A stretch of DNA of 64,000 nucleotides from an uncultured Candidatus Saccharibacteria bacterium (GTDB lineage Bacteria > Patescibacteriota > Doudnabacteria > UBA920). The translations under genes were made by a program, and so were the position numbers. The notes beneath the pieces are model-generated. The model searched no databases. It was not told the origin of the DNA and was given only the letters and a program-made list of their open reading frames with translations. The number at the start of each line of letters is the position of its first letter. Position 1 is the first letter of the stretch. The stretch covers positions 168,647 through 232,646 of the forward strand of contig CAZRKK010000001.1 in the NCBI GenBank assembly GCA_964600695.1, read 5' to 3'. Below are positions 29,786 through 57,101 of the stretch, one piece after another.

Positions 29786-29878
<93 letters not shown>

Positions 29879-32386: not shown

Positions 32387-32474
<88 letters not shown>

Positions 32475-36869: not shown

Positions 36870-36910
36870 AAAATAATTATACCTTATGAGTGATAAAATC
36901 TAGATAAAGT

Positions 36911-38050
36911 TTATTGAAGTATATGGTAATAGAGGGAGCCGTCTTGATTATTGCGGAAGAAGAGAATATCTCCATTTAGGCTTAGAAATGGCTCTGCCAC
37001 ATCAACATCTGTTCCTGGAGGGAATTCAGTTTTTTCTCCACTGCTGATTTCTATTTTATAAACTGAGTCTGTAGTTACACCTTGTCCAGCAATTCCTGAA
37101 GTTGGCACACCCGCAACAATATATGAACCGTCCTTTGACCAAACAGCTTTTGATGTAGAAGTTGCCACACCTAGATTTCGAATTTCCCCACTGGCAAGGT
37201 CTGACACCCAAAGATTAAACTTTTGAGTAGATGGATCTAAGCGGCTAAACAAAAACTTCTTGCTGTCAGGTGACCATAACACACCTTTGTTATAACCATC
37301 ACGAACTACAGACTTAAAAGTCTTCCCATCTATGCTAACTGAATTGATTGTATTTTTTGTTTGATCAGATATCTGATTACGATAGAATAGAATAGTTTGC
37401 CCATCCGGAGAAACAACAATCTCGTTATCAGGTTCGTATAAATCGGTAAGCATCTGGTAATTATTTGTGTCTGGATCAGAAATATTTAAGGTAGCCTTAC
37501 CGTCGCTTCCTACCCACACAAATAATATTTTATTTCCACTAGGGACCCAGTCTAAACTTTTTACCTGTGATGGCAAATCAATATAGTTACCTGTATCAGG
37601 ATTATAATAACTCCACTGCTTGCTAATACCACTGCCAGATTCAGCTATATAACTATTACCCACTGCTGGCCATAAAATTCGAGAAATATTAGTTTTTGCT
37701 GGAACAGTGAGTTCTGTTTTATCACTTAATAATACTGTGCTGCCTGTTACTGACATATTAGTTCGGAACAATTGACCTTGACGATTAAAGTAAGCAATCC
37801 CATCACCTTGAAAGAACAAAGCTGGAGTTATTACTGCTTCGTCTGTTAACTTAGTAGCTTGACCACTACTAGGGGTTTCTTCGGTTGGATCTTCTTGGGG
37901 AACTTCCTCGGTTGGCTCTTCTACCACGACAGGGGTTTCTTCGGTTGGAGTTGTATCGTCTTTAGATGATCTACTCCAAATAATAAATCCCAGGGTTCCG
38001 ACTATAAGGATAAATATTCCTCCTAAAATGGCGATAGCTTTTTTATTCAC
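36911..38050 (-). CDS. TolB-like PD40 beta-propeller protein with an N-terminal TM anchor and an acidic Pro/Glu/Thr linker
   Basis: PD40-type repeats are present: SPDGQTILFY, WSPDSKKFLFS and WSKDGSYIVAG. It has an N-terminal signal anchor. Confidence 0.55.
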   Translation of the reverse strand: MNKKAIAILGGIFILIVGTLGFIIWSRSSKDDTTPTEETPVVVEEPTEEVPQEDPTEETPSSGQATKLTDEAVITPALFFQGDGIAYFNRQGQLFRTNMSVTGSTVLLSDKTELTVPAKTNISRILWPAVGNSYIAESGSGISKQWSYYNPDTGNYIDLPSQVKSLDWVPSGNKILFVWVGSDGKATLNISDPDTNNYQMLTDLYEPDNEIVVSPDGQTILFYRNQISDQTKNTINSVSIDGKTFKSVVRDGYNKGVLWSPDSKKFLFSRLDPSTQKFNLWVSDLASGEIRNLGVATSTSKAVWSKDGSYIVAGVPTSGIAGQGVTTDSVYKIEISSGEKTEFPPGTDVDVAEPFLSLNGDILFFRNNQDGSLYYHILQ

Positions 38051-38136
38051 GATTCTATTTGTTTAATTTTGTTTCAATGTGTGCCAATGGCCAAAGAATG
38101 ATCTTCAAACCTTTTATATATTATAGCACAATATGC

Positions 38137-39369
38137 TTAAAACTTACTTATATCAGTGCAAACTTCATTAAAAGTAGAAGCAAATTCATTACCACTCCAC
38201 CAGTCTATAGCTTTTGTGGCCAAATTAGAAAAGAAGCCAGTACCCAGCCCTGAGGTTTCGCATATATACCAAAATATACTAGCTACAAAAGCTAAAAATA
38301 TAATGATGGCTAGTAAATCAAATAATAACAGGAAGATTTGCATTGGTTTTTTAGATAAGCCTTGCAAATACCCTTGAGTAGGAAAAACTACCCCAGCAAA
38401 CATATAAAAACTCATAAGTATTAACATTGGAATCCCTATTATCCATCCTAATATACTGAAGGTCATCCCGACAGCAATTATCAACAAAAAACCCATTAAT
38501 AAAAGCATGGAAGCTTTCTCTGCATGGAATCTAGCTTTCTTATGATGTTCTGCTGCTCCTTTAACATCTCCTTTTCTTAAGGCATTAGCAGCAGAGCCAA
38601 GTTCAAACGTACAGTCTACAGCATCACTTAAACCTAAATACATAGCTATCTCTAACAGTAAACCGATTAACAGGCCGATACCTAGAGTTTCTGGAGCAGA
38701 AGCAACTGCAGCACCACCAACTACCGTAGCTGCAGTCCCGCTAACCGCAGCGGAACCAGCTCCTGCAGCAACTTTACCTCCGACCTCTGCAGCACCTCTG
38801 ACAGCGAGCTTAGCGCCTTGTTTACCTAACTCTTCCCCAACCTTTTTGCCAACCTTTTTGACTGCTTTTTGTGCTGTCTCTTTAGCAGCCTTCTTTATAG
38901 CATCCTTGCTAACATCTTTAACTTCTTGACCGAACTTATCCTTAATTTTGTCTTTGGCGTATTTCTTTATCCTGTCTTTAGCTTCTTGCTTAATGCGTTC
39001 TCTGTTTTCTGGAGTATCAGCAGCAACACCTTTTATATTATCTAAGGCAGATTTTGCTTTTCCTATTGCGTTGCCAGCTTGCTTTGCCAAACCACCTTTT
39101 TGCGCTTGTTGATAAGAAGATTGAAACTCCGGATCTTTTTGACCATACTTTTCATTAGCAAAATTATAACCACTGTCATCATTCGTTGGTGCTTGCCTTG
39201 GGTTATTAGACTGATAACTATCTTCGTCTGTTAAAGGATTGTTCTGATAAGAACCTTGAGCATTTTGCCCAGGCACGTATTCGTCAGCATCTGACCCGCG
39301 AAAATTTGTTCCATCAAGTAACATCATATCTTTAAAATAATGGGCCCCACCAGCACTAGAGGGACCCAT
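38137..39369 (-). CDS. membrane protein of the T4SS-like locus: a Q/N/Y-rich N-terminal region, a Lys-rich coiled-coil middle and a C-terminal multi-TM region
   Basis: A Q/N-rich disordered N-terminus is followed by a KxxK-rich segment and then an Ala/Gly-rich and hydrophobic region with 4 or more TM helices. Confidence 0.5.
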   Translation of the reverse strand: MGPSSAGGAHYFKDMMLLDGTNFRGSDADEYVPGQNAQGSYQNNPLTDEDSYQSNNPRQAPTNDDSGYNFANEKYGQKDPEFQSSYQQAQKGGLAKQAGNAIGKAKSALDNIKGVAADTPENRERIKQEAKDRIKKYAKDKIKDKFGQEVKDVSKDAIKKAAKETAQKAVKKVGKKVGEELGKQGAKLAVRGAAEVGGKVAAGAGSAAVSGTAATVVGGAAVASAPETLGIGLLIGLLLEIAMYLGLSDAVDCTFELGSAANALRKGDVKGAAEHHKKARFHAEKASMLLLMGFLLIIAVGMTFSILGWIIGIPMLILMSFYMFAGVVFPTQGYLQGLSKKPMQIFLLLFDLLAIIIFLAFVASIFWYICETSGLGTGFFSNLATKAIDWWSGNEFASTFNEVCTDISKF

Positions 39370-39376
39370 GGTAGCT

Positions 39377-41227
39377 TTATTTTATTTCTGCTAAATCTTC
39401 TTTGCTTTGTTCAATTTCTAGCAACTGTTTTGGGTCCGTGGTAATAATCTGGTCTTCCACATAAGATGCATATATCTTGATAGCTGCGTGCTTTAACCCA
39501 GCAAAGAAAATTCCTTCTCCAACATCACTTTCTAATAATAGATATTTCTCCCCTTCGGTTAAAAAGAAAGTTTCGGCAACAATATCTACAGCCGCAGGGC
39601 TTTGTTTAAGCAATAATTGAATTGAAGAGTTGGTAACAATTGGTTTACCATAACTACTAGCCATAAAGTCGGCTACGTCTTGAGTGATAGTAGTCAATCC
39701 TAAGTAATACTTACGAGCCCGCTTAGCGATACCAAATACGAATCGAGCAGAATCTTCATGTTGCATCATAATCCAAGCCTCATCTAATACCAAAATTCGG
39801 CGCTTTAATTGACTTCGCACCACATTCCAAATATGCCCCAAAATAATGTACATTGCGATTGGTCGAAGAGAATCTTCTAGGTCTCGAATAGAAAATACTA
39901 GTAGCTGATTTTGTAATACTACGTTAGTTTGGTTATTTAATAATCCTGCGAAAGTTCCTTCGGTAAATTTACCTAATCTCATAGCCAAAGATTCGCCACC
40001 GACCATTCCACTTAAAATTTCGATAAGATCGCTCATAACTGGCATTTCGACTGTCGCAAAATCAGATGTTTCGTTTATATCTTTCTTAGCGTATGTTTGC
40101 CACATAGCTTTATCTAAAATGGCTTCTTCTGTCGGATCAAGCTTACCTAAGACCAAGCCCATCAAGCCGATTAAATTAATAATGGCGCTACGAAGAATAT
40201 CACCCTTGTCTTCATCTTCTAAGCCAATTGGCAAATCGAATGGATTGATACGAAAATCTGAGTTTAAAGAAATATTTAAATAAGTTCCGCCAACAGCTTC
40301 GGCTAAATGCTGATATTCATTTTCTGGATCCACGACTATCACTTCGATACCCACCATCAATGAGCGGAGGATTTCTAATTTTACAGCATAAGACTTTCCT
40401 GCCCCAGATTTTGCAAACACAACAAAGTTAGCATTTTCCATCTGAAATCTATCGAACAAAATTAAACTGTTATTATGACGGTTAATACCATACAAAATTC
40501 CATCGTTACCGGTTAGATCCGAAGATACAAATGGAAAAGTACTAGATAGCGGGCTAGTGTTAAGATTGCTAGCAACATCAAGATCATCGATTGCAAGCGG
40601 TAATGTAGAATTATACCCTGCCTCCACAGCCAACAAAGCTCTTTTTGTCACTACTAATTTGGCACCCAAAGCACTCTCTAAAATTTTGGAGTTCTTGTCT
40701 AATTCTTCTAAGTTTTCGCAATAAAGGGTGAAGTACAACGCAAAACGGAAGAAATGTTCTACACCTTGCTGAAGTTCGTCACGCAATTCTTCTACGTCAT
40801 GATAAGCGGTTTCTAGCAAAGGATTACGAGCTAAACCTTTTTCTTGTTCAATAGTCATCTGAGAACCAATTTCACCCACCTTGCTACGCAATTTTTTTAG
40901 AACCATTCCGGAGTCGATTGGATAAATAAACATCGAAACATCCAAAGCACTCTCGGAGTTTATAATAAACGATAACCAATTTGTAGACAAGAATCGAGGA
41001 TATGCCAAAACAAAGAAGCTACGTCCAAATTTACCGTTTAGTTCAAAATACGAATTAGAAAATTTTAAACTACTTGGGGCAAGTAAATCTTTAAGAGTAG
41101 TAACACCTTCGCGATACTCTTTTTCGACTTGAGCCAACTTTCCCTCGGCAGAAATCTGCCCCTTAAGGTGCTCTAACTCTTCCTTCTTTTTGTCGAGCTC
41201 TGATTTGTTAAATGAAAATAAACCCAT
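39377..41227 (-). CDS. VirB4/TraE/CagE-family T4SS ATPase, C-terminal ATPase portion (616 aa)
   Basis: Walker A (FAKSGAGKSY) and Walker B (RILVLDEAWIMM) are present. The YPRFLSTNWL segment is typical of Gram-positive-type VirB4 proteins. Confidence 0.8.
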   Translation of the reverse strand: MGLFSFNKSELDKKKEELEHLKGQISAEGKLAQVEKEYREGVTTLKDLLAPSSLKFSNSYFELNGKFGRSFFVLAYPRFLSTNWLSFIINSESALDVSMFIYPIDSGMVLKKLRSKVGEIGSQMTIEQEKGLARNPLLETAYHDVEELRDELQQGVEHFFRFALYFTLYCENLEELDKNSKILESALGAKLVVTKRALLAVEAGYNSTLPLAIDDLDVASNLNTSPLSSTFPFVSSDLTGNDGILYGINRHNNSLILFDRFQMENANFVVFAKSGAGKSYAVKLEILRSLMVGIEVIVVDPENEYQHLAEAVGGTYLNISLNSDFRINPFDLPIGLEDEDKGDILRSAIINLIGLMGLVLGKLDPTEEAILDKAMWQTYAKKDINETSDFATVEMPVMSDLIEILSGMVGGESLAMRLGKFTEGTFAGLLNNQTNVVLQNQLLVFSIRDLEDSLRPIAMYIILGHIWNVVRSQLKRRILVLDEAWIMMQHEDSARFVFGIAKRARKYYLGLTTITQDVADFMASSYGKPIVTNSSIQLLLKQSPAAVDIVAETFFLTEGEKYLLLESDVGEGIFFAGLKHAAIKIYASYVEDQIITTDPKQLLEIEQSKEDLAEIK

Positions 41228-41228
41228 A

Positions 41229-41915
41229 TTATTTTTGTAAATCTTTAATCGTCACCTTAGTTAATTGCTCTGCGTCGATATTTGGGCCAGAAGCAAAATT
41301 GTAAGAGTTATAAACTAATTCAATTAATTGGTCGGTGTTAAGCTTTACGACTCGTAAACCAGAGCTAGATAACGACGCCGAGACGGTATTAGCTCTTTCG
41401 TCTAACTGCTTTTTGTATGTGACTAAATTAGCTTCACGGTCCGTGACAGCCTTGGTTTTACCGGTTCCAAATATACGGCTAAAAATACTGGTCGCAGCTG
41501 GGTTAATACTGGTATCGTAAGGAACGATAACATAAAAGTTCTTACTCATAACATTAGCTGACTCTACTAATCGGTCAATAAACTCTATATATTCCTGAGT
41601 TTGCATTCTAAGAAGTTCATTAGTCTGCTTTTCCATCATCACTTTAAGTCTTTCGGTATATTCGGCTATGTCCATTTTGCGAGACTGCATCAAAATTTGA
41701 ACATGAAATTCCAAAGAATTCAAAAATCTTTGGTAACTATACACCAAAGCATTTTGCTCCTCTTCGCTCTTTAAATCAAAATTAGTACTAGACACAGCCA
41801 ACACTGCACGCAATGTGCCATTGTCCATAATAATCACATCATCACGTATTTCTGCGAGACGTAAAAATTGCTGAGTTGGACTGCCAATTTGTTTTTTATT
41901 TTTTGTTATTGCCAT
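41229..41915 (-). CDS. VirB4 N-terminal domain encoded as a separate 228-aa ORF
   Basis: DDVIIMDNGTLRAVLAVSSTNFDLKSEEEQNALVYSYQRFLNSLEFHVQIL follows the VirB4/PrgJ N-terminal pattern (dG.l.....v.g.nf.l.s.ee). Its stop codon sits 1 nt before the ATG of the ATPase ORF. Confidence 0.6.
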   Translation of the reverse strand: MAITKNKKQIGSPTQQFLRLAEIRDDVIIMDNGTLRAVLAVSSTNFDLKSEEEQNALVYSYQRFLNSLEFHVQILMQSRKMDIAEYTERLKVMMEKQTNELLRMQTQEYIEFIDRLVESANVMSKNFYVIVPYDTSINPAATSIFSRIFGTGKTKAVTDREANLVTYKKQLDERANTVSASLSSSGLRVVKLNTDQLIELVYNSYNFASGPNIDAEQLTKVTIKDLQK

Positions 41916-41921
41916 TTGATT

Positions 41922-42383
41922 TTATTTAGCACGATCAGTTTCTCTATTTTTTTTAATTCGCTCGATCAGACTTAACTCTTCGGTTTGCTCTTTTTGTAAT
42001 AAATAATTTAACTCTTTAATCTTTACAGCGGTACCTTTTAAGTCCTTTGGTGCCTGTTTTTCTTCGGAAATTATTGGAATGTCCATTTCGACAGATTCTT
42101 TTCCTTGTTTATGGTAAACGTACAACTTTGGACCAAAAAGGTAACTAAAAAAGTTTCCTGCGCTGGCATAGAGTGGCCGCCCGTTCAATTTACCAAAAAC
42201 CAAAGCCAACGCCGGTAATCCTGTCAGAACTGCGGTTGTAATTGTAACTGCTAAGTTTTTACTTATTGTGTAAATAACAAAAGTAAACACGGCTGCACCA
42301 AAAATTATGGCAAACTGTTTAAAGGTTAGGCCGGCAATGATTTTATCTTCGACGTCTGTAAATTGTGGGACTGGAAATTGCAT
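41922..42383 (-). CDS. VirB3/PrgI-like small 2-TM T4SS protein
   Basis: The N-terminal EDKIIAGLTFKQFAIIFGAAVF (the LT.rQ motif) is followed by two TM helices, at 153 aa. It sits immediately upstream of VirB4. Confidence 0.55.
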   Translation of the reverse strand: MQFPVPQFTDVEDKIIAGLTFKQFAIIFGAAVFTFVIYTISKNLAVTITTAVLTGLPALALVFGKLNGRPLYASAGNFFSYLFGPKLYVYHKQGKESVEMDIPIISEEKQAPKDLKGTAVKIKELNYLLQKEQTEELSLIERIKKNRETDRAK

Positions 42384-42397
42384 ATATATTATATCAT

Positions 42398-43354
42398 TTA
42401 AAAACGATTAACCTTGAGAGAAAGGAGAATGTCGGCTATAAATTCAAATTCTTCTTGTGATAAAGCCAAATTATCTTTTTTACCCATTAACATACTCTTA
42501 CCGTAATTCAAATAATCTTGATACAAAGGGCTCTGCTCAAGATTTGTAACAACCTGAAAGTAACCGTACTGAGCCGCTAGTTCATTGATAGTCTTATGAA
42601 ATGTTTCTCGATTCTGTTGATGTAGTGCTGAGCTAGTGAGATTACTGATATCCTCAAACTTACTAAGAACCATTGTATTCATAGACGAAGATACGTCTCT
42701 AATCGGAGATTTAGGAATAGACAGCGGATTAACAGGCGGCATAGGGACAGTCTCTGTAGGCTTAGGACTTGAAGGTGGCATAGGTATCGAACGTGGCCTG
42801 ATCGGAGCAGCTTGAGAATGCATTGGCATCGGCGCAGAAATGGGTCGTGGTGCGGTTTGTGGTGCTGCTGGTGATGGAGCTGATTGGAAGGTTAGAGGGT
42901 CCTGTTTTTGATCTGAAAGTTGATTAGGTAAATTACTAATATGCGACAAAGACGAGCCACCTAATGGCTTTGGTGCAGTAGCAGCTGGTGGAGTAGAAGC
43001 CACTGGCGGTATTGGAGATACTGCTGGCACCGACCTAGTTAGTGGCACTGGCCTTGTTGGTGGCATTGGCTTAGTTGGCGCGGATGGTGTTGGTGGTGTG
43101 ACTGGTGTGGTTGGTGGCATCGCCACAACTTGTGGTTGCTGTTGCGGTTGTGGTTGTTGTTGCGGTTGTTGTTGCGGTTGTGGTTGAGCGACAGGTTCTG
43201 GCTTTGGTTTTTGTAAAATTTCTTCTAGCTCTGCAATTTGCTTATCATTCATCAATTCAATTAAAGCCATCCATTCATTTTTTTCTTGCTCGCTTAAAAC
43301 AGTAGCACTTCTTACTAAGTTTTGTATCTGTTTTAATTTTTGTTCGTTTAGCAT
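42398..43354 (-). CDS. Pro/Gln-rich low-complexity protein
   Basis: A (PQQQ)n tract and a long PT/PS-rich region are present, with no TM helix. Structured N- and C-terminal ends flank the tract. Confidence 0.45.
   Translation of the reverse strand: MLNEQKLKQIQNLVRSATVLSEQEKNEWMALIELMNDKQIAELEEILQKPKPEPVAQPQPQQQPQQQPQPQQQPQVVAMPPTTPVTPPTPSAPTKPMPPTRPVPLTRSVPAVSPIPPVASTPPAATAPKPLGGSSLSHISNLPNQLSDQKQDPLTFQSAPSPAAPQTAPRPISAPMPMHSQAAPIRPRSIPMPPSSPKPTETVPMPPVNPLSIPKSPIRDVSSSMNTMVLSKFEDISNLTSSALHQQNRETFHKTINELAAQYGYFQVVTNLEQSPLYQDYLNYGKSMLMGKKDNLALSQEEFEFIADILLSLKVNRF
43131..43195. repeat. imperfect tandem trinucleotide/nonamer repeat (gttgtggtt/gttgttgcg units) encoding the PQQQ tract
   Basis: The tandem run reads gttgtggttgctgttgcggttgtggttgttgttgcggttgttgttgcggttgtgg. 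Confidence 0.6.
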
Positions 43355-43358
43355 TTTT

Positions 43359-44339
43359 TTAACTTTTAGTTTGGCCCTTGTTTCTGTTCTTGAGTTCTTC
43401 TAGTTTAGTTCGAATTTTTAATTCTTTAAGTTTTTGCTCGGCACGTTTTTCTCTACTAACAGCCTCTTGTTTTAAGTCTATGTTAGTCGGAATGTCGAAC
43501 ACCAAACCTTTTTTAGGTTGAGTGCTTAGATCTAGATCTTTTTGAGGGGCTATTTTGTAAGGAGATTGGGGTGTTTGAGGTAGTTCAGGTTCTGGAATTA
43601 TGTTCTGATCTTTTATTGGTGGTATTTCTTGCGGAGGTGTTATTTCTGGTTCTTCAGAGATTGGCTCTTCTGCTACAATTGGCTGTTCGAGCTCTGCCCC
43701 GTACTCTTCTTCAAACTTTTTTACTGCCCAATCTTGAAACTCTCGAGTGTCCTCTGGTGACAACTTTTCTGGGAGCTCTTCATAAAGATTAACTAAAGAA
43801 TCGACTCTATCATAAATTCTAAGAATACTTTGCAAGGCCTTGCGCTGACCAATAGAAAGAATCTTTAAATTAGGGCCAGTATTTATATATTTCATCTCAC
43901 CTAAAGCATCTTTCATTTCTGGATTAACCATGGATTGATAATCTAAAATCCAGTTTGCAATAGTCGGAGTTACCTGCTTCCCGTTTACATTTATTTTTTG
44001 ATCACCTAATAATTCTTGATGATTTACTAAAATTGCTTTCAATTTATAGAGAAAATCTATTTGCACATCAACATATTCTAACAGTTCAAAATAATCTGCT
44101 AATCTACTATCTAGATCAAAATCAGGAATTTGATAAGCTGCTAGAATAGACTCTTTGATGACCCCCAATAGACGTTCGGAATCCAAAGCATTCATACGTA
44201 AATAGTTGAGGCGTAAATAATCCGTACGAGGTAACTGGATTTGACTATCTCTTGCAGCCGCAACTAAAACTTCCCATGCTCTTTGAGCGTCACGGAATTT
44301 TATAGCTTCTTCAATTTTTAATTGAATTTCTGGGATCAT
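43359..44339 (-). CDS. hypothetical cytoplasmic protein with an acidic Pro/Glu-rich C-terminal region
   Basis: The 326-aa protein has no TM helix. It is translationally coupled to both neighbours. Confidence 0.45.
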   Translation of the reverse strand: MIPEIQLKIEEAIKFRDAQRAWEVLVAAARDSQIQLPRTDYLRLNYLRMNALDSERLLGVIKESILAAYQIPDFDLDSRLADYFELLEYVDVQIDFLYKLKAILVNHQELLGDQKINVNGKQVTPTIANWILDYQSMVNPEMKDALGEMKYINTGPNLKILSIGQRKALQSILRIYDRVDSLVNLYEELPEKLSPEDTREFQDWAVKKFEEEYGAELEQPIVAEEPISEEPEITPPQEIPPIKDQNIIPEPELPQTPQSPYKIAPQKDLDLSTQPKKGLVFDIPTNIDLKQEAVSREKRAEQKLKELKIRTKLEELKNRNKGQTKS

Positions 44340-47300
44340 ACAACTATATGGGGTTTAAAGATTCTTGCAACCCTTGGAGTAGCCACTTCAACCAAAGCAG
44401 AAGCAACGTGATTTCCAATTGAGTTGACTTCTTCAGGATTAGACTCAAACTTGCTTAAAATATGATCAGCAATAGGTCTGTCGATTTTCTGTCGCAAACT
44501 CTTAGACTTTTCTTTTGTATCGTAAGCTCTCAACTTTTCCTTAATTTTCGCATTAAACTGTTCAACTCCGTTACTGTCAGTATGAGTAACATCGCCCTTT
44601 TTCCACTCTGTAACCTCTTTAACCTTTTTGGTTTCCAAAACTTGCTGTTGTTGGGTAATCGTATTTAATATCCCACCACCGTTTGCTAAACTTTTTACTG
44701 CGTTAGACAAAGAAGTGTTGCCATTTTTTTCACTAGAATTAGATACTTCACGAATTATGTTAATTTGAGACTTCCCACTAACCTTTCCAAATTTTTCCTT
44801 AACAAACCCAGCGAGGTCTTCAACATTGTTTTTCTTTCCACTAGCCTTAAGCAATCTATCCAAAACTCCATTATCGGCCATCTGCTTAAAATGGGCTCTA
44901 GCAGCTGCCATATTATTCTCTTGCAAAGCTTTGTTAAAACCACTCTCTAGTTGATCATAATCAAGATCACCAAGATTTTTTTGAATATCACGAGCTTCGG
45001 AATCTTCTTTTGCCGCCAAGGCTTTGGAGAAAGGTCTTTCTCTGTATTGAGCCTTTTCGGCATCATCAGATGCTTCTTTCATATACCTCTTACGAACATC
45101 ATCATCCATAGTTCCGGTAAAGCCTAATTCAGTCCTTATGTTATTGTCATTCGTCAATACAACCGTGGCATCAGAAATATCTGCCGTAAGCTTGGCTTTT
45201 GTAGCATCGATATTTCTATTGAAGTCAGTACCCATATCATTTATATCAATGTCATTTAACCCATTAGCATCCGCGATTCCAATTGCAACATCAAGGGTAT
45301 TTTTATCATTTCGAAGTCTAGCAACTTTTGCCCGAGTGCCTGGTGTGCTATTTTGGGAATCCTCGGCTTCTGCCGCATTTAACTTTCCTTCAATATCAGA
45401 CAAGTTATCTCTTGCCATTTCGATATCCGCACGACCATTATTAAGAGCATTTAAATATCGTTGGTTAGTATTGAGATTAGTTGCCAATTCTCCCATATCT
45501 GAGTCATTACGAATTTCTGTAAATCGTTTCTTCTGCTCAGCCTGAGTCATTAATTTTTTAGAATCTTGACCCATAGCTTTCCAATACGCCATCTTCAATG
45601 GGAATAGTTTATTTTCACCCCACGGCTGGAATTTATCGGTAACGTCACTGAACTTTTCGGTAAAGCGCTTGTTCATCTCTTCCTTAGGATTATCAAACAA
45701 ACCCTTCTTTATTGCCTTACCAGCTTGAATAGGACGAGCAACGCCCATAATTGCTTTTTGTAAACCAGGGCGACCCTTTAACATTTTTGAACTAGCTAGT
45801 GCATCAGCCCCAGTATCCTTAGCCCACTTACCAGCTGCGAGAGCGCCACGTCCTGCTGCTGCAGGAACAGTCTTAGTAACAAAATCAAATCCCTTCTTGG
45901 CACCATCAACAATTTGCTTAGCACCAAATGTACCACTCTTTAAAGCGAAGTGCATACCAGCATAAAGGAAAACCAAAACAACAAAGTGAGAGATGATTGT
46001 AATGGCATACTCTGTAATTTCTTTGGCTGGATCCATACCAGCAAAAAGATAACTTGGATTTCTACCAGCTTCCACTGCATCACCAGAACGAGAAGCGAAA
46101 GTTGTTGCCATCAACGCTGTTATATTCAAGAAGAATGCCAAAATCGGAACAGTAAAAGCGTACTTAATAAACTGAGACCACCACTGATCAAAATAACTTT
46201 TTGTCTCAGGAAGTATGCGTGCTACATATGCCAAAGGTGAAACCATATACAAAAGCCACAAAGCCACGAGTCGGACTAAAATAAAAGCAATCAAAGCAAC
46301 AAACGAGAAGAAAGATGCTATGGCTAAAATTAACAGTACAATAGGTTTTGTAATATCACTTGCACTTAATTGAACAGTAAAGTTACTGTTTTCGGTTATA
46401 TTTTCTGCGAAACCACCAGAGCTATCTTGTCCTCTAAAGAACTTAATCGGATCAACCATTAACTTTTGACCCAATGCTTCTATAACTTTACTTTCAGCAG
46501 GTAAAAATTGGGATTGCACAGTATCAGCTATCCCTACAACTCCTTGGGCAATGACTAAACTAAAGTTAACTAACAAAGCCATTAACACAAGCCATAAAAT
46601 AAATCCGCGTGACTTACCAGCATCATCAACTTGAAATAAGGTACGCAAACCCATCCACAACAAAGCCAAAATAAAACCAATGTTTGCTACGTTACGTAAG
46701 ATAATCCATCCAGGGTAAATAAAGTTAACAAACTGATCTTCGTATGGTCTGATTTTTAACAATGCATTTAGTATCGGTACTAATATAATCGCAAAAATCC
46801 AGTACAACACACTGGTCATCAAGAGCACTAAATAAGAGATGACCTTACGAAGGAAATTAAATAAGTCGCTACCAGCAGTTGTCTCAGACTTAGCTTCATC
46901 AGAGGTAGTGGTTTGGGATATTGGTTCTGCAAATCCAAACTTTGCAAAATTAGGATCTTTGCTACACTTTTCCTTATCTTCTGGTTTTACATCTGCCTCA
47001 CAAGCTGCAATGATATCCTTAATATCTTTATACACCTCAACAGTAAACTTTTGTAAATTTCCAGAGCCAGCAACTAAAATAACAGGGTTAACATAGCCCC
47101 CACCACCAATATATGCTTGTGGACCAGCAGTGCCTGTAACCCCAATTATACCTGGCAAGGCAACAAACTCTGCTTGACCGATCATCTTTCCGCTACTAGT
47201 ATTTGTAGTTGCAGAACTTGTAGCAGGTTTGTCGGTGGATGTTTTTGTGGTTTTATTCTTCCACGCAGCAGATTTTAAAATAGGTTTAAAATCACCTGGT

Positions 47301-48406
47301 ATTTGACCTGGGGCTGCTTCATCACCATTACCACTACTATCACCTTTCCTAAAAACCACCTTAGAGCAATTCGTCCCAATCCAACCCGCCTCACAGGCTA
47401 TAGGCACTATACTCTTTGCGGTATCGTAGTAACTAAAATAAACTGTACTATTTTTATAGATAGGTTGATAAGTAATCCCTGCTTGCTTTCCATCATCCTT
47501 CTTGGGTAGACTGAATTTCTGCTCCGGAACTAATTTTTTTGAACCCCACTCTAAATGAACAGCATCCAAACCAGCTGTGGTTCCAAAATTTAAATCACCG
47601 TCTGTCTCTAGTACTCGATATTTTGATCTTAAACCAGCACCACCTTCTTTTGGTTTAATACTAATAGGGATTGTTTGATAGTCAACTACTTCCCCTTCCT
47701 TTACATTAGTTTGACTATTACCACTCGCTCCTACTTCAGGCAAGGTTGTTTCTTCTGGACTATCAGACTTAGCCTTGTCGTGCTTCATGTTAACCTTACC
47801 AATCGAACCAGTTGAGGAACTTAAGGTTCCATTTTTGAAAAAATAACCATAAACACAGTAATTTGTCTGGTAAGTTCTAAGGCTAGTGTCTGATAAATTT
47901 TCTATACTCAAATTTTTTATTCTCGCCCTAAACATGTTTTTCTCTGGTACGAACTCTGCATCATAACCAGTTAAACCATTTCTTGCCACTAAAGAAGTTG
48001 CGCATGTACCTGCTACATTTTCACCATATAAAAATGGTGCAAAACTATATCCTGCCCCGTTATTTGCAGTCTTACAAGCATCGGAAGTTGCTTGATCTAC
48101 AACTACCTCCATATACATATCAAACTTTTCTTTTGTCCCGACCACAGATTTATTTGCTAGGACCCGATAACTCTTAAGGCCAGAAATGATAGTTCCTACG
48201 GAAATATTACAACTAGCCCCTCTAATTGAAGGGATAGATGGCAAGCTCAACTGCGCCTCAGCAACTTTCACCCTGATAGGTAAAACAGGCAAAAATAAAG
48301 AAGCAACGAGAATCCCTAAGATAAATCTTTGGAGAATTCCCCTGCTTATTTTTAATGAGTTTGGGGTTAAAAATTTAAGTAATTTTTGTATTGATTTCTT
48401 GGTCAC
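44336..48406 (-). CDS. giant VirB6/TrbL-like polytopic membrane protein (1356 aa) with a large N-terminal extracellular region, a roughly 6-TM core and a long charged C-terminal domain
   Basis: A signal/TM segment starts the protein. About 500 aa of hydrophilic sequence is followed by a cluster of 6 to 7 hydrophobic helices from aa 520 to 830. The final roughly 500 aa are a coiled-coil-rich charged domain. This architecture resembles expanded VirB6 homologs. Confidence 0.5.
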   Translation of the reverse strand: MTKKSIQKLLKFLTPNSLKISRGILQRFILGILVASLFLPVLPIRVKVAEAQLSLPSIPSIRGASCNISVGTIISGLKSYRVLANKSVVGTKEKFDMYMEVVVDQATSDACKTANNGAGYSFAPFLYGENVAGTCATSLVARNGLTGYDAEFVPEKNMFRARIKNLSIENLSDTSLRTYQTNYCVYGYFFKNGTLSSSTGSIGKVNMKHDKAKSDSPEETTLPEVGASGNSQTNVKEGEVVDYQTIPISIKPKEGGAGLRSKYRVLETDGDLNFGTTAGLDAVHLEWGSKKLVPEQKFSLPKKDDGKQAGITYQPIYKNSTVYFSYYDTAKSIVPIACEAGWIGTNCSKVVFRKGDSSGNGDEAAPGQIPGDFKPILKSAAWKNKTTKTSTDKPATSSATTNTSSGKMIGQAEFVALPGIIGVTGTAGPQAYIGGGGYVNPVILVAGSGNLQKFTVEVYKDIKDIIAACEADVKPEDKEKCSKDPNFAKFGFAEPISQTTTSDEAKSETTAGSDLFNFLRKVISYLVLLMTSVLYWIFAIILVPILNALLKIRPYEDQFVNFIYPGWIILRNVANIGFILALLWMGLRTLFQVDDAGKSRGFILWLVLMALLVNFSLVIAQGVVGIADTVQSQFLPAESKVIEALGQKLMVDPIKFFRGQDSSGGFAENITENSNFTVQLSASDITKPIVLLILAIASFFSFVALIAFILVRLVALWLLYMVSPLAYVARILPETKSYFDQWWSQFIKYAFTVPILAFFLNITALMATTFASRSGDAVEAGRNPSYLFAGMDPAKEITEYAITIISHFVVLVFLYAGMHFALKSGTFGAKQIVDGAKKGFDFVTKTVPAAAGRGALAAGKWAKDTGADALASSKMLKGRPGLQKAIMGVARPIQAGKAIKKGLFDNPKEEMNKRFTEKFSDVTDKFQPWGENKLFPLKMAYWKAMGQDSKKLMTQAEQKKRFTEIRNDSDMGELATNLNTNQRYLNALNNGRADIEMARDNLSDIEGKLNAAEAEDSQNSTPGTRAKVARLRNDKNTLDVAIGIADANGLNDIDINDMGTDFNRNIDATKAKLTADISDATVVLTNDNNIRTELGFTGTMDDDVRKRYMKEASDDAEKAQYRERPFSKALAAKEDSEARDIQKNLGDLDYDQLESGFNKALQENNMAAARAHFKQMADNGVLDRLLKASGKKNNVEDLAGFVKEKFGKVSGKSQINIIREVSNSSEKNGNTSLSNAVKSLANGGGILNTITQQQQVLETKKVKEVTEWKKGDVTHTDSNGVEQFNAKIKEKLRAYDTKEKSKSLRQKIDRPIADHILSKFESNPEEVNSIGNHVASALVEVATPRVARIFKPHIVV

Positions 48407-48438
48407 AGAAGGTAAAATTGACTGTAAAACTTATAAAT

Positions 48439-48447
48439 ATTATACCA
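48439..48447 (-). promoter_or_regulatory. extended -10 element TGGTATAAT (minus strand), a candidate internal promoter for the VirB6-like gene
   Basis: The plus strand reads attatacca, which is TGgTATAAT on the minus strand. It lies 32 nt upstream of the ATG at 48406. Confidence 0.4.
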
Positions 48448-48480
48448 TATCGATCCTCAAAAACCCAAATATTTTGGACA

Positions 48481-48521
48481 AATAAAAAACCACTCATTTT
48501 ATTAAAATTAAATAAGTGGTT
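48481..48521 (-). terminator. intra-operon rho-independent terminator or attenuator (minus strand)
   Basis: Read on the minus strand, the hairpin aaccacttatttaattttaataaaatgagtggtt is followed by ttttttatt. Confidence 0.45.
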
Positions 48522-48541
48522 TTGAAGAAATTTATGATACT

Positions 48542-50212
48542 TTATTCACCTCTAGGATTGAATTTGGCCGAAGGACTTGGACCACGAGGGTTAATTGAGG
48601 TAACACCTTTTACAGAACCTTCTTCACTAATGACACCATTATTGTTAAACTGTGCTTTTGGCAAATTAGAAGCTAACTCACCAATCGCACCATTCATGGC
48701 CTGGAACCCAGCTTCCTTAAAGATCTTTGATGAACTCTTACCTCCAGTTAATAAATTACTAAGGAAGTTACTAGCAACGTCGGAAAGGAAGTTAGCATAG
48801 AATGGTAAGTTATCGCTCTTCAGCTGAGAACCTTGGTCTAGATGTTGTTTTACAAAGTTATTTAACTGATCACCGACAAATGAAGCAGGTGAATCGATTG
48901 CTTTACAAATATCAATTACAGGCTCAGCATCTTGTGATGGTAAATCCTTGTACTTCTTTTCGATCTCATTGAAGGCTGCCTGAGCTTTATCCAACTCGGC
49001 TTTAGTTGTCTTTTTAGCTTTATAAGCCTTTTGTAATTTAGAGAGAACATCTGCTGCAGCTACTAACTCGTTAGTAGCGGTTTCGTACTTAGTATCAATT
49101 TGTTGTTGTAATTCTAACGAACCAGAACAATCACGTGGTGGGGCAAAGCCATTACTTTGATCCACCTCAGCTTGAGCAGATTGTTGTCCGGCTGCTTTAA
49201 CTTTTAGTGCTTGATCTTGAGCTGTTTGGAACTGAAAAGCAGTACTTGCCTGCTCACTGCCAAACGCTGCTAAACACTTCAAAGAATCCATATTCTCTAC
49301 ATCTAGCTGACCAATGCCGTTACATTGAGAGCCTAAGTAGTCTTGGGCTTTAGTTGAAGCAAAAGCTTGGGCAATTTTTGCTTTTTGAGGAATTTTGTCA
49401 CTTTGAATAAGTGAACGCATCATCATTTGAGTCCGAGCATCACCTTTAAAATTCTCGTTGATATACTTCATGGAATAAACCTGAGTAGCTACAGCATCAC
49501 CATAAGCGAGGTAATCATCAATCTTATACTTCTCTACCATGCTGTTTACTAATTTTGTAGTCAGGTTTTTATTCAAATTTAGAACAAGTTTAACCATAAA
49601 GGCTTTTAACACATCCTTTACGCTTGCATTCTGACGAGCTTTTAAATCTTCGGTAATCTTTCTAAGGGATTCACTCACTTTAGTATATTTGTCTTGCTCC
49701 CTTTGAACATCTTGACCCATAGTCAAAGTTTGACTAGAAATCTCGCTAAGTAATCGAATATAAATATCTACACACTCTTTAGCTGCAACTGCTTTAACTA
49801 TGCTTTTTGATAACTTTGTAGATTCCCCAATTCCTCCCCCAATTATGCTTAAGAACGAACTACTAGAAACGTCAATAATTGTATCCACCTTGTCTGCGGA
49901 ATCAACAGCCTTTAATATTTTGTCGCAAGTCTCTCCTACTGCACCACGAGCAGCCTTTATAGTACCCTCTGAAACACCTGGTGTATAAATTCTTAAATTA
50001 AGTGGCGACAATGGTGATTCAATTGTCGGCACAGCTAAGGCCTGTGCATAAGAAGACTTCGCGGAAAATAAAAACGCACCACTCATTGAAGTAGTAACTA
50101 AAACAAAAATTAAAGTAGCAACTACTTTATTTTGGATATTATTATTTTTACGAAGTAAATTCATTTTTGTTTTTCGACTATAAAGAAATTTGATACTTAG
50201 ACTCGATTTCAA
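48542..50212 (-). CDS. secreted or membrane-anchored hypothetical protein (556 aa) with a coiled-coil-rich mature part
   Basis: It has an N-terminal signal anchor (VVATLIFVLVTTSMSGAFLF...AQA). The start may instead be the internal Met at about 50164, which would remove the overlap with the upstream gene. Confidence 0.5.
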   Translation of the reverse strand: MKSSLSIKFLYSRKTKMNLLRKNNNIQNKVVATLIFVLVTTSMSGAFLFSAKSSYAQALAVPTIESPLSPLNLRIYTPGVSEGTIKAARGAVGETCDKILKAVDSADKVDTIIDVSSSSFLSIIGGGIGESTKLSKSIVKAVAAKECVDIYIRLLSEISSQTLTMGQDVQREQDKYTKVSESLRKITEDLKARQNASVKDVLKAFMVKLVLNLNKNLTTKLVNSMVEKYKIDDYLAYGDAVATQVYSMKYINENFKGDARTQMMMRSLIQSDKIPQKAKIAQAFASTKAQDYLGSQCNGIGQLDVENMDSLKCLAAFGSEQASTAFQFQTAQDQALKVKAAGQQSAQAEVDQSNGFAPPRDCSGSLELQQQIDTKYETATNELVAAADVLSKLQKAYKAKKTTKAELDKAQAAFNEIEKKYKDLPSQDAEPVIDICKAIDSPASFVGDQLNNFVKQHLDQGSQLKSDNLPFYANFLSDVASNFLSNLLTGGKSSSKIFKEAGFQAMNGAIGELASNLPKAQFNNNGVISEEGSVKGVTSINPRGPSPSAKFNPRGE

Positions 50213-50915
50213 TTTTGATACTAGAAATTTTATCCATCAGACTAAACAGTGCACTACTGTATTGAGCTAAACCACTATCATCGCCGGAAAAAGATTCTGC
50301 TAATTTAGAAATTGTCTGGTAATAAAAAATGTTGTACTTATGATAATTTACTAGTTCAGTCGGTACAGCAATTTCTGACATGTCTTTAATAATATCTTTC
50401 GCTTGGGCCGAAGTTTTTGCATACAAAGCTTTGTCACTGCTATTTAAGTTTGCGAATAATTCTGCAGTGTCATAATAGCTTTCGATTTGCAAAATCTTAT
50501 CTGCATAATTTTGAATTGTTTGCGTGTTAGTTGGAACAACTGTTTTAATAGAAATTAAATCTAATTGTTCTTGACTAAACAATTGTTCGGCACTTGGTAC
50601 TTCGTCTAATCCGATTGCGGCACCAAGCACTGCACCATCTGCTTGACCACGATCTAATAATGCAAATTGATTTTCTAATTCTTGTTGATATTGTTCTTCA
50701 TCTATCACACCAGCATCTGCGTAAACTTGATTACGAACTTGATCGTAAGTTAACATGGGTTGTGTTTCTTCTTCTGCCTGAGAGAACATCGCTGAGACAC
50801 TAATGTTTGTTCTTGGAATAACCAGTAAACCAAAAACAAATACCGCCGCTAACATAATGAAAGCGTGGTTAAGTGTAAATCCTAATTCTTGTAATTTTGT
50901 TTTTATTTTATTCAT
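50178..50915 (-). CDS. bitopic membrane protein (245 aa) with a VirB8-like topology (N-terminal TM helix plus a periplasmic domain)
   Basis: The TM helix is AFIMLAAVFVFGLLVIP. Topology and size are reminiscent of VirB8/PrgL, but there is no sequence motif to confirm it. Confidence 0.4.
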   Translation of the reverse strand: MNKIKTKLQELGFTLNHAFIMLAAVFVFGLLVIPRTNISVSAMFSQAEEETQPMLTYDQVRNQVYADAGVIDEEQYQQELENQFALLDRGQADGAVLGAAIGLDEVPSAEQLFSQEQLDLISIKTVVPTNTQTIQNYADKILQIESYYDTAELFANLNSSDKALYAKTSAQAKDIIKDMSEIAVPTELVNYHKYNIFYYQTISKLAESFSGDDSGLAQYSSALFSLMDKISSIKIEIESKYQISL

Positions 50916-50943
50916 TTTGTTTTTGATGTTCTATCTAGATACG

Positions 50944-51303
50944 TTAGGATGTTCCTATTTGAGAAATTGGAAAGATCGGATACATCGGGCAAGGAATTGG
51001 TGGTACTAAAAAAGTTCCAAGAACAAGAGTACCTTTAGTGTATAAATTGAAGCGCTCATAAACTTGAGAAGTTGGAACAACTGTAATCGGTAAGGGAGAA
51101 CCTGTCATATAATTATTAACAATCGTATGAGCCACAGGACAAGTCGGTGTTGGTGGTACAAATTCTTCTACAGAACCAGCAAAAGGGATACCAGAAGGTA
51201 TCACAAATTGTGCTTGAGTTTTGTACGCTTGACCAGGCAAAATAAGAAAAAGCCCAGCTAATAAAACTACCGAAGCTATTCTTTCGAGATATTCTTTATA
51301 CAT
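50944..51303 (-). CDS. small secreted Pro-rich protein (119 aa), the first gene of the T4SS-like operon
   Basis: A signal peptide (VVLLAGLFLILPGQAYKTQA) is followed by a roughly 90-aa Pro-rich mature region with two Cys. Confidence 0.45.
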   Translation of the reverse strand: MYKEYLERIASVVLLAGLFLILPGQAYKTQAQFVIPSGIPFAGSVEEFVPPTPTCPVAHTIVNNYMTGSPLPITVVPTSQVYERFNLYTKGTLVLGTFLVPPIPCPMYPIFPISQIGTS

Positions 51304-51336
51304 ATTCGATTGTATTTTTATTTTTGTTTCGATTTT

Positions 51337-51356
51337 GTTCTACACATTGGTAGAAC
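51337..51356. promoter_or_regulatory. inverted repeat GTTCTAC-N6-GTAGAAC in the leader of the T4SS-like operon (candidate operator)
   Basis: gttctacacattggtagaac forms perfect 7-bp arms. It lies between the -10 element and the first start codon. Confidence 0.45.
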
Positions 51357-51374
51357 TTCTAAACTTGTAGTATT

Positions 51375-51403
51375 ATTATAGCAGAAATTACTAAATTTTG
51401 CAA
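51375..51403 (-). promoter_or_regulatory. consensus sigma70 promoter (minus strand) TTGCAA-N17-TATAAT driving the T4SS-like operon
   Basis: On the minus strand, ttgcaa (plus 51398-51403) is followed by a 17-nt spacer and tataat (plus attata 51375-80). The leader is about 65 nt. Confidence 0.6.
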
Positions 51404-51406
51404 GTC

Positions 51407-51925
51407 ATGAAAACCAAAATCTATTTACTCATTTTAAGTTCGTGTATTGTGCTATTAAGTGCTGGTTGCTACAAACAAGATCACGAGCTATTACGTCCCA
51501 GCATGGAGAATAACCAATCAACAGTTGACACAATTTTAGCCGAAAACTACAACACACCAATTACAGTTGGAGATAGAAAACTTTCCGTAGAAATTGTTGA
51601 TACTGACGAGAGCAGAAAACTTGGTTTGTCTAATCGCGCAACTTTATTAGAGGGTAAGGGAATGTTATTTGATTTTACAAACACAGACACTACCCTACCA
51701 AGCTTCTGGATGAAGGATATGAATTTTGATCTCGATATAATTTGGATTAATCAAAATAAAATTATAGGAATAACAACAAACGTACCAGCACCAAAAAATA
51801 AAAACATTAGCGAGACGTTATTACCAAGTTATCCTCCACCCTCGGCCATTACCCACGTCTTAGAAGTTCCGAGTGGTTGGAGTAAAAAAAATAATATTAA
51901 GACTGGTGACGAAATAAAAATATAA
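51407..51925 (+). CDS. DUF192-family lipoprotein
   Basis: A lipobox (LLSAGCY) and GMLFDF...WMKDMNFDLDIIWIN, the DUF192 core, are present. The ATG at 51407 is preferred over the TTG at 51398. Confidence 0.6.
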   Translation: MKTKIYLLILSSCIVLLSAGCYKQDHELLRPSMENNQSTVDTILAENYNTPITVGDRKLSVEIVDTDESRKLGLSNRATLLEGKGMLFDFTNTDTTLPSFWMKDMNFDLDIIWINQNKIIGITTNVPAPKNKNISETLLPSYPPPSAITHVLEVPSGWSKKNNIKTGDEIKI

Positions 51926-51953
51926 AAACTCTTCCTGATGGAAGAGTTTTAAA

Positions 51954-52802
51954 TTATTTTACAGAGTTGAGTTCGGTGACTAAATCTATCCATTGCTTGA
52001 TAGTTAACTGTTGAGGTCGAAGCTGTGGATCAAGTTTTAATTTACTTAGAATTTTTAAAACAACATCTTTCGGCATTCCAAAATTATTTGTCAACGTATT
52101 GTGAATCTGTTTTCGTTTACCTGTAAAGCACGCTCGTAATACTTTAAATAATTTTTGCTCTGTTGTAGAATCCATTTTGTATTTAGATTTTTTATGCAGT
52201 TCAATATGCACCACTGCACTGTCTACTTTTGGTGCCGGAAAAAACTTTCTCGCTGGAACGACTTCAACTAATTTTGCATCCGCATAAAGTTGAACAGAGA
52301 TTGCCAGCAGGTTCAAGCTCCCCTCTTTGGCAGTAAGATTATTAGCAACTTCTTTTTGCATTAACAAAGTTAAACTTGTTGGTTTATGTTCACGCTTCAA
52401 AAAGTACTGAACAATTTTTCCAGTTACATAGTACGGAATGTTTGCCACAACTTTATAATCATTTTTAACTGCATCACCGGTTAACACAGAATCAATATCA
52501 GTTTCTAAAATATCTGCTAACACATATTTAAAATTCTTATGCTTCTTTTTAAGAGAGTTAAGGACATTTGTAAACTGTGGATCTTTTTCGACAGAAAATA
52601 CTGAGCCAGCTTTTTCTAATAAAAATTTTGTTAGGTTACCAATTCCAGGACCAACTTCTACTACAACATCTTTATCACCAACTTTAGCGACATCCAACAT
52701 ATCTTGTAAAACAATTTCGTCCAATAAAAAATGCTGACCAAAAGTTTTGTTTGGGCTTAGTCCGTAATCTATTAATAATTGTTTAAGAGTTTCTGGAGTC
52801 AT
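51954..52802 (-). CDS. rsmA: 16S rRNA (adenine1518/1519-N6)-dimethyltransferase
   Basis: FGQHFLLDEIVLQDML and a SAM-binding VVEVGPGIGNLT motif are present. Confidence 0.85.
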   Translation of the reverse strand: MTPETLKQLLIDYGLSPNKTFGQHFLLDEIVLQDMLDVAKVGDKDVVVEVGPGIGNLTKFLLEKAGSVFSVEKDPQFTNVLNSLKKKHKNFKYVLADILETDIDSVLTGDAVKNDYKVVANIPYYVTGKIVQYFLKREHKPTSLTLLMQKEVANNLTAKEGSLNLLAISVQLYADAKLVEVVPARKFFPAPKVDSAVVHIELHKKSKYKMDSTTEQKLFKVLRACFTGKRKQIHNTLTNNFGMPKDVVLKILSKLKLDPQLRPQQLTIKQWIDLVTELNSVK

Positions 52803-56729: not shown

Positions 56730-57101
56730 TTACCTAATAGCTTCCGTGTTAATAACCTGAATACAGCCTTCGATTTCTAATTGGTGAGCTATGTTAACTA
56801 ATTGATCATAATTGAGAGGTTTAGTAGTTAACCCTTTGACAAACAACTCATTCAAACCTGTACACCAAACTTCGTTATCAGAACTAGCACTAGCAGACAT
56901 GGCTGATAAGCCGATAGTAGGCATTTTAGCAAATCTGGCAAGGATTTGTTTTTGCTCGGCTTGATCCTTACCTTTCATATCAGAAAGTAAAATTTTAGCA
57001 GCGGAGAGATCGCGCTTTTCTTGTGCATCTTTCAACAACGGCACAACTCCGTTTAACCCCACCAATAGAGCTAACAATAAAAATATAACTAACTTATTCA
57101 T
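56730..57101 (-). CDS. small secreted hypothetical protein
   Basis: A signal peptide (LVIFLLLALLVGLNG) and two Cys are present, at 123 aa. Confidence 0.45.
   Translation of the reverse strand: MNKLVIFLLLALLVGLNGVVPLLKDAQEKRDLSAAKILLSDMKGKDQAEQKQILARFAKMPTIGLSAMSASASSDNEVWCTGLNELFVKGLTTKPLNYDQLVNIAHQLEIEGCIQVINTEAIR

Follow-up and report, generated by a model that had tools for sequence, protein, structure and literature searches.

What does the largest protein of a Saccharibacterial type IV secretion system (T4SS) look like, and what might its parts be for? The ultrasmall, parasitic Saccharibacteria depend on this system for life on their host bacteria, yet its role has been called 'completely unknown' in a review (PMC11665869), and it is the only T4SS reported to be essential for the survival of the bacterium that carries it (PMC12857230). 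We address the question with a stretch of 64,000 nucleotides (the window) from an uncultured Candidatus Saccharibacteria bacterium (GCA_964600695.1, contig CAZRKK010000001.1, positions 168,647 to 232,646), in which the largest open reading frame (ORF), 44336..48406 on the minus strand, encodes a protein of 1356 amino acids (aa). The original prediction, made from the letters alone, had described this protein as VirB6-like, with a large extracellular N-terminal domain, a membrane core and a long charged C-terminal extension. We consider it likely, with a probability of roughly 0.75, that the gene encodes an extended VirB6 subunit of a chromosomal, Patescibacteria-type (monoderm, MPF-FATA-related) T4SS of a Saccharibacterium. 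This basic identity is already known, as the protein is another member of a published component class and ordinary for the phylum. What does not appear in the literature searched is the family-wide three-part architecture, the adhesin-like ectodomain with its probable disulfide bonds, the conserved helical tail and the apparent cassette-like exchange of modules.

The VirB6/TrbL core and the family architecture

The gene is complete, from a GTG start to the stop codon at 44336-44338, and the identical 1356-aa protein is called on five independent metagenome contigs. Since the orthologues keep the N-terminus MTKKSIQKLLKFL, the choice of start codon is supported. Hydrophobic segments were taken from a Kyte-Doolittle profile with a 19-aa window. 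One of them lies near the N-terminus (aa 28-46) and is followed by an AEA/Q-type signal peptidase motif. Hydropathy and direct reading, with seven Lys or Arg in the first 27 residues, identify aa 1-46 (48269..48406; all parts of the gene are on the minus strand) as a signal peptide or signal anchor, and this part is 85-89% identical in the closest orthologues. Seven more segments make up the core (aa 527-545, 573-591, 602-620, 689-707, 713-731, 750-768 and 804-822), and the same seven are present in the family-averaged hydropathy profile. The peptide IVLLILAIASFF, quoted in the original prediction, corresponds to aa 689-725. The ORF list, hydropathy and the metagenome contigs bear out the 1356-aa ORF with its three-part layout. 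The protein is the largest of the locus, as had been said, and indeed of the whole window, and the expected 6 to 7 tightly spaced hydrophobic helices are seven, at aa 527-822.

The core itself, aa ~513-825 (45932..46870), appears from sequence comparison to be a TrbL/VirB6 domain. It matches PF04610 with 37.6 bits against a cut-off of 25.9 (E 2.6e-9), over aa 580-777 and profile positions 3-190 of 215. In addition, it can be aligned directly to TrwI, the VirB6 of R388 (PDB 7o3v), over aa 693-866 with an E of 0.003, and the FDQW motif is included in this alignment. In VirB6 proteins, the loop that leads into the last two hydrophobic helices carries a conserved tryptophan (PMC7648143). The corresponding loop of the window protein holds W742 and W743 of the sequence FDQWW (46178..46183), and both are invariant in the orthologues. 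W742 is a candidate for the equivalent of the conserved, essential tryptophan of Agrobacterium tumefaciens VirB6. When about 110 family members were scanned with Pfam, 55 gave TrbL matches, and the only other family found was a single C-terminal DnaJ domain. For the window protein, Pfam returned no permease or adhesin family and NCBIfam no matching model. The outcome that would have told against the original prediction, a core unlike VirB6/TrbL and at home in some other family, is thus not what the Pfam scan gave. Two observations do speak against the identification. The match to TrwI is weak, and the family profile did not recover TrwI from the PDB sequences, where it found only compositionally biased helical proteins (E of at least 0.078).

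How far the three-part layout extends was seen in an exhaustive HMMER search with aa 500-1356 as the query, which gave 11,836 matches at E<=1e-3 and 249 cluster representatives at E<=1e-30; a word-index homology search found six relatives only. Nearly all of the best 150 representatives have 1000-1500 aa and a core that begins at residue 250-550, and the median lengths in the family are 318 aa for the N-domain and 506 aa for the C-domain. An N-domain, a core and a C-domain of about 500 aa are the family norm and no peculiarity of one gene. An 'extended VirB6' subtype, consisting of a VirB6 core and one or more large hydrophilic domains, is recognised, and these extra domains have no known function (PMC12857230). 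The window protein belongs here, with its core flanked by an N-domain of ~470 aa and a C-domain of ~530 aa, and the likeness first drawn to the expanded VirB6 proteins of obligate host-associated bacteria is apt (PMC12857230, PMC7648143).

Homologues of VirB4, TrsD, PrgI/VirB3 and VirB6 have been described as clustered on Patescibacteria chromosomes without relaxases, and no adhesins were detected in these T4SS clusters (Quinonero-Coronel et al. 2025, PMC12102498). For Candidatus Southlakia epibionticum, the cluster SEML1_0006-0019 was found by Tn-seq to be essential for epibiotic growth (Wang et al. 2023, PMC10633639). In this cluster, the 3267-nt gene SEML1_0013 encodes a protein of 1088 aa that was annotated from structure as TrbL/VirB6-like with a helical, 'ARM repeat'-like domain at the C-terminus, and the gene is essential at later time points (PMC10633639, Tables S1, S2), and SEML1_0011 is a second large paralogue with a similar tail (PMC10633639). 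The two systems are alike in having VirB4, TrsD and PrgI partners, a chromosomal location, no relaxase and an extended VirB6. However, the core of SEML1_0013 apparently starts from about aa 156 (Table S2 domain ranges), and the ectodomain of the window protein is much larger, at ~470 aa.

Though SEML1_0013 and SEML1_0011 carry the KEGG-style label K01992 (ABC-2 permease) in Table S1 of that study (PMC10633639), and though the ectodomain model described below is adhesin-like, it is barely credible that the protein is a permease, or a surface adhesin with a polytopic anchor, and no secretion subunit. Apart from the one DnaJ domain, TrbL/VirB6 is the sole Pfam family across the members scanned, an ABC-2 match is absent, VirB3 and VirB4 genes accompany this gene without exception, and the part aligned to TrwI includes the tryptophan motif of the family.

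Comparison with better known VirB6 proteins shows where the window protein departs from them. With TrwI and A. tumefaciens VirB6 it shares the TrbL/VirB6 domain and the presence of VirB3 and VirB4 genes alongside, and with TrwI also the FDQW tryptophan loop followed by two hydrophobic helices. However, these proteins have about 300-340 aa, lack large hydrophilic domains and belong to diderm systems with VirB5, VirB7, VirB9 and VirB10, and the similarity to them is marginal (E 0.003). The extended VirB6 proteins of Rickettsiales (Anaplasma, Ehrlichia, Rickettsia, Wolbachia) have large hydrophilic N- or C-terminal flanks with strain-variable extensions, and they too come from obligately host-associated bacteria, some with several paralogues in the genome (PMC7648143). 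They differ in that their carriers are diderm alphaproteobacteria and in that their extensions, unrelated in sequence, are often tandem-repeat or low-complexity regions, whereas those of the window protein are a folded beta ectodomain and a helical C-domain. In F-plasmid/SXT TraG and in the monoderm MPF-FA VirB6-like proteins (700-900 aa, e.g. TcpH), a polytopic part is likewise followed by a large hydrophilic C-domain (PMC12857230, PMC7648143), but the extensions have no detectable sequence similarity to ours, and the C-domain of TraG serves mating-pair stabilisation and entry exclusion in conjugation.

Apparent exchange of modules and the probable N-terminal ectodomain

The comparison of orthologues foreseen in the original prediction separates a conserved core from a variable ectodomain and a variable middle part of the C-domain (mid-C, aa 976-1094). 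The related loci were taken from one-genome-per-species data, and nearly all of them are labelled Candidatus Saccharibacteria. Among the eight relatives compared, core identity is 66-99%, and the core can be 97-99% identical in relatives whose ectodomain is only ~25% identical. In mid-C, identity is 18-59% among close relatives. Three relatives illustrate the pattern. The window protein is 98.7% identical to P0004 in the core, 25% in the ectodomain, 18.5% in mid-C and 51% in the distal C-domain. The corresponding values are 81.8%, 20%, 59% and 81% for P0007, and 73.1%, 43%, 23% and 47.5% for P0003. Each of the three modules has a nearest relative of its own, a pattern that one tree with unequal rates cannot produce.

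The DNA gives a sharper view of the borders. Compared with the locus of a sister genome (L002), the window is 86-90% identical along the cluster, and the VirB4 protein is 99.7% identical. Two blocks of the VirB6 gene cannot be aligned: 48281..46871, which is aa ~43-512 and comprises the whole ectodomain, and 45480..45125, which is aa ~976-1094 and comprises a helical arm of the C-domain. Their boundaries coincide with the domain borders of VirB6. A third unalignable block (38679-39192) is the middle of another cluster gene, g410, in otherwise ~88% identical DNA, and it looks like another cassette-type replacement. Judging from these alignments, the ectodomain and part of the C-domain appear to be exchanged between lineages while the core is almost invariant. 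The simplest reading is that divergent alleles have recombined and whole blocks were replaced. Repeats of at least 40 nt, direct or inverted, are absent from 36000-52000.

A diversity-generating retroelement was considered as the source of the variation and rejected, since there are no such repeats, no reverse transcriptase is found among the scanned ORFs, and whole domains are replaced instead of points being varied. The scan, here and below, is of 54 window ORFs of at least 120 aa against Pfam; it left out the ORFs 15553-16101, 16146-17147 and 17263-17715, which are also of at least 120 aa and have real-gene potential, and its scope is these 64 kb of the genome.

In two Saccharibacteria metagenome-assembled genomes (MAGs), short contigs carry a second and divergent copy of VirB6 (L005 in addition to L001, and L008 in addition to L009), and the copy of L005 is flanked by fragments that resemble g556 and g326, the two genes next to VirB6 in the window. 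These second copies could be paralogues, or they could be alleles of co-existing strains that break the assembly at a hypervariable gene.

What is exchanged at the N-terminal end is a folded domain. The ectodomain (aa 47-512, 46871..48268) was modelled with AlphaFold2 and compared with known structures by Foldseek. The model of aa ~47-512 is folded and mostly beta, with a predicted local distance difference test score (pLDDT) of 78.9 and a predicted template modelling score (pTM) of 0.72. Disorder is restricted to short S/T-rich linkers at model residues 350-358 (about aa 396-404) and 381-392 (about aa 427-438). The Ser/Thr/Gly-rich N-domain of the original prediction persists as a moderate enrichment (27.9% versus 20.9% in the whole protein) and not as low complexity. 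All eight Cys of the protein are in this domain. They form the probable disulfide pairs 66-111, 135-184, 338-347 and 469-481, which are kept or lost pairwise in homologues; for Cys 135 and 184, both are present in seven sequences, neither in 22 and a single one in two. The N-domains of 154 family representatives contain 749 Cys in 56,756 residues (1.3%), against a background of 0.48% in the window proteome, and the number of Cys in the N-domain is even in 124 of 142 full-length members. Since there is a signal or anchor segment, since Cys occur only in this domain and are gained and lost in pairs, since their counts are even, and since the model is a beta sandwich near adhesins, we suggest that the N-domain is most likely a disulfide-bonded extracytoplasmic domain. 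The same points lend indirect support to the extracellular location first proposed for it.

The best full-length Foldseek neighbours, none of them significant, are streptococcal antigen I/II C123, CNA, invasin and Epstein-Barr virus (EBV) gp350, all multi-domain beta-sandwich surface proteins. Locally, the best matches are immunoglobulin (Ig)-like sandwiches, with a probability of 0.9-0.97 over ~145 columns. A viral structure library gave no further neighbour for the ectodomain, and Pfam has no family for the N-domain. We infer a strain-specific contact or adhesin module, which would project through the wall towards the host cell. If so, the ectodomain may supply the adhesin that surveys missed in these clusters. 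Two considerations count against an adhesin role. Foldseek found no match to the ectodomain in the PDB at E<=1e-3, and the case for this role is made up of fold class and variability.

The C-terminal domain and its side of the membrane

The C-domain begins with a basic juxtamembrane segment and the first long helices (aa 826-975, 45482..45931). It continues with a variable arm of helical hairpins (aa 976-1094, 45125..45481), which is the second of the cassette-like blocks, and ends in a conserved, compact, all-alpha distal domain (aa 1095-1356, 44339..45124) with the invariant motifs NN...A.A..K.....G and KNGN. The AlphaFold2 model is all-alpha with a pLDDT of 83.4 and has long helical hairpins at aa ~890-1094 and a compact helical domain at aa ~1100-1356. 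Confidence is low for the basic region of aa 823-932, and the helices of aa ~932-1356 are confidently modelled, with pLDDT above 90 for those of aa 976-1094 and 87-96 for aa 1095-1356. Modelling of both terminal domains, which had been put forward as a check, thus gives a beta-rich ectodomain and an all-alpha C-domain. The C-terminal coiled coil that had been described is indeed charged (K+R+D+E 31%; K 10.9, A 10.3, N 8.5 and D 8.3%) and helical, but it is not one long coiled coil, as hairpins and a compact domain take its place. A relative of this domain did not emerge: its structure has no match in the PDB (best E 0.24, to designed and natural alpha-solenoids), and Pfam has no family for it. 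A profile of the distal part, run against an index of 5.8 billion proteins to find stand-alone copies, returned no matches, not even its own family members, and has no bearing on the question.

On which side of the membrane is this domain? Because two hydrophobic helices separate it from the tryptophan loop, the C-domain and the loop are on the same side. We lean towards the cytoplasm, at odds somewhat better than even, because several features point to it. The juxtamembrane segment is strongly basic, with a family mean of 8.4 K+R versus 3.7 D+E at aa 823-880. The hydrophobic segments, one plus seven, are even in number. One family member, P0049 (1342 aa), has at its end (residues ~1275-1342) a DnaJ (J) domain that contains an HPD motif and follows a long G/P/S-rich linker, a possible clue to a cytoplasmic C-terminus or else a gene-fusion artefact. 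The adjoining proteins g326 and g318, which are plausible as partners, are soluble and lack signal peptides, and the start of g326 overlaps the stop codon of VirB6. In A. tumefaciens VirB6, which has the classical topology, the tryptophan loop and the C-terminus are cytoplasmic (PMC7648143).

Other observations pull the C-domain to the outside. In the R388 structure, only alpha1 and alpha2 of the seven VirB6 helices are in the membrane and the rest are periplasmic (PMC9259494). Trypsin reaches the C-termini of Anaplasma VirB6-3 and VirB6-4 on intact cells, and F TraG has a C-domain whose site of action is outside the cytoplasm (PMC7648143). The mid-C arm is swapped like a cassette between close strains, and such variability suggests an exposed region, for which it is easier to explain. 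Moreover, the charges of the inner loops are contradictory and fit no simple alternating topology, and the J-domain fusion of P0049 is a single case that may be an artefact of gene calling. All of these points weaken the case for a cytoplasmic C-domain. A simple positive-inside topology for the core was tried and dropped, since the inner-loop signals contradict each other.

With the VirB6 identity unchanged, only the first core helices might span the membrane, as in the R388 structure, and the remaining hydrophobic helices and an extracytoplasmic C-domain could form an external stalk or tip that stands in for VirB5, which is not known from monoderm systems. Alternatively, the C-domain might be released in the direction of the host, as for F TraG. 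The scarcity of Cys, nine in 75,534 residues of family C-domains where about 363 are expected, would fit an exported domain without disulfides. However, it leaves the location unsettled, because several cytoplasmic proteins of the same genome are also Cys-free, among them the Clp ATPase (856 aa) and UvrD (757 aa) of the window. Set against the basic juxtamembrane segment, the J-domain fusion, the soluble neighbours and the classical topology, we regard this exported arrangement as possible, though on the unlikely side.

A mechanism can be proposed. By homology, the core would oligomerise atop VirB3/VirB4, as TrwI is a pentamer in R388, and would form the base of a translocation or pilus-assembly channel. 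The C-domain, on the side of the tryptophan loop and so most likely in the cytoplasm, may be a docking platform for g326, g318, VirB4 or substrates; these systems lack a coupling protein. In its boldest form, the proposal is that the ectodomain is a cassette-swappable host-recognition module that sets the host by its allele, in place of an adhesin, and that the C-domain is a cytoplasmic substrate receptor that replaces the coupling protein. We put this forward tentatively, as a conjecture that in its entirety is rather improbable.

The secretion cluster and its meaning

The neighbours of VirB6 were read from the ORF list, synteny, hydropathy and, for g410, the DNA comparison, and all those given here are on the minus strand. 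Directly after VirB6, in every locus, comes g326 (43359..44339), a fast-evolving protein of 326 aa that lacks both a transmembrane (TM) segment and a signal peptide. The 4-nt overlap of its start with the stop of VirB6 suggests translational coupling. The next gene, g318 (42398..43354), encodes a soluble protein whose two ends are conserved and whose long, P/Q-rich centre varies in length. The two are always between VirB6 and PrgI, and neither has a Pfam or NCBIfam match. A PrgI/VirB3-like membrane protein (41922..42383; PF12666, 35.5 bits, cut-off 27) and the VirB4 ATPase of the CD1110 (monoderm) family (39377..41227; NF045971, 340 bits, cut-off 325; PF19044) follow 2-3 kb downstream of VirB6 on the same strand. 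Between them is a TrsD-like protein that resembles the N-terminal domain of VirB4 (41229..41915); its NCBIfam TrsD match is below the curated cut-off (E 2e-7, 31 bits versus 200), and a precomputed match is to PF26593 (TraC-like). Further downstream, g410 (38137..39369) is a membrane protein with three C-terminal TM segments and the variable middle, and after it, on the same strand, is a PD40 beta-propeller protein. Directly upstream of VirB6 are g556 (48542..50212), exported or anchored and with six Cys, and then the N-terminally anchored g245 (50178..50915).

The order UvrD-KsgA-g245-g556-VirB6-g326-g318-PrgI-TrsD-VirB4-g410-PD40-RadA is found in seven MAG loci, six from Saccharibacteria or unclassified Patescibacteria and one labelled Doudnabacteria. 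Across the loci L001-L009, VirB4 is 85-99.7% identical at the aa level. RadA (35559-36869), at 64-99%, and UvrD (52812-55085), at 62-82%, are less conserved than VirB4, and the peripheral g326, g318, g410, g556 and g245 evolve much faster than it. Otherwise the window holds housekeeping genes, including those for RadA, RecG, Clp ATPase, KsgA, UvrD, RecO, IleRS, GatAB, MreBC and PBP2.

Could the cluster instead be the transfer apparatus of an integrated conjugative element, with the protein an ordinary channel subunit for DNA conjugation? The nearest family to VirB4 is CD1110, whose members are ATPases of conjugative transposons, and PrgI and TrsD are conjugation-type components. However, the same housekeeping flanks (KsgA/UvrD and RadA) are present in all seven MAG loci, and neither a relaxase, coupling protein or integrase among the scanned window ORFs nor flanking repeats were found. 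Furthermore, VirB4 is more conserved than the flanking RadA and UvrD, and the published system is without relaxases (PMC12102498) and essential for growth (PMC10633639). Given the synteny and the lack of a relaxase, a coupling protein and an integrase among these ORFs, we have rejected the conjugative element and consider it very improbable.

The VirB2-like pilin array of S. epibionticum has no counterpart found in the window, where no pilin family is matched; pilin genes may be elsewhere in the genome. Directly upstream of g245, a 119-aa ORF (50944..51303, minus strand) has a signal peptide, two Cys and a Pro-rich mature part, and the operon may begin with this ORF. It is the only small exported ORF near the cluster and is not VirB2-like in appearance. 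A peptidoglycan hydrolase with LysM and CHAP domains is encoded at 55756-56643 (plus strand), on the strand opposite to the cluster and 5 kb away from it. CHAP-type enzymes are the VirB1 equivalents of monoderm T4SSs, and this hydrolase could be the wall-opening enzyme of the system.

Elsewhere in the window, a 604-aa DUF11/DUF7927 repeat protein without Cys (57854-59668, minus strand), probably a surface protein, is encoded between two paralogous CBS-domain genes (57101-57844 and 60418-61128). Two tRNA-Ser genes on the plus strand (29786-29878 and 32387-32474, with GCT and TGA anticodons) bracket genes for an ECF-type sigma factor, a DUF5667 protein and a PD-(D/E)XK endonuclease. The ORFs of GatB (18663-20333) and GatA (20185-21693), both on the minus strand, overlap by 149 nt, and the start of GatB is probably downstream of its first GTG.

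The three parts of this extended VirB6 provide handles on an essential secretion system of unexplained function, namely an almost invariant core, a swapped ectodomain and a conserved tail without a known relative. In addition, the alleles of the ectodomain and of mid-C are a typing marker for strain-level variation in metagenomes. If the ectodomain is indeed a host-recognition module, the host range of these bacteria would be readable from one gene, and the function of their T4SS would become testable by domain swaps.

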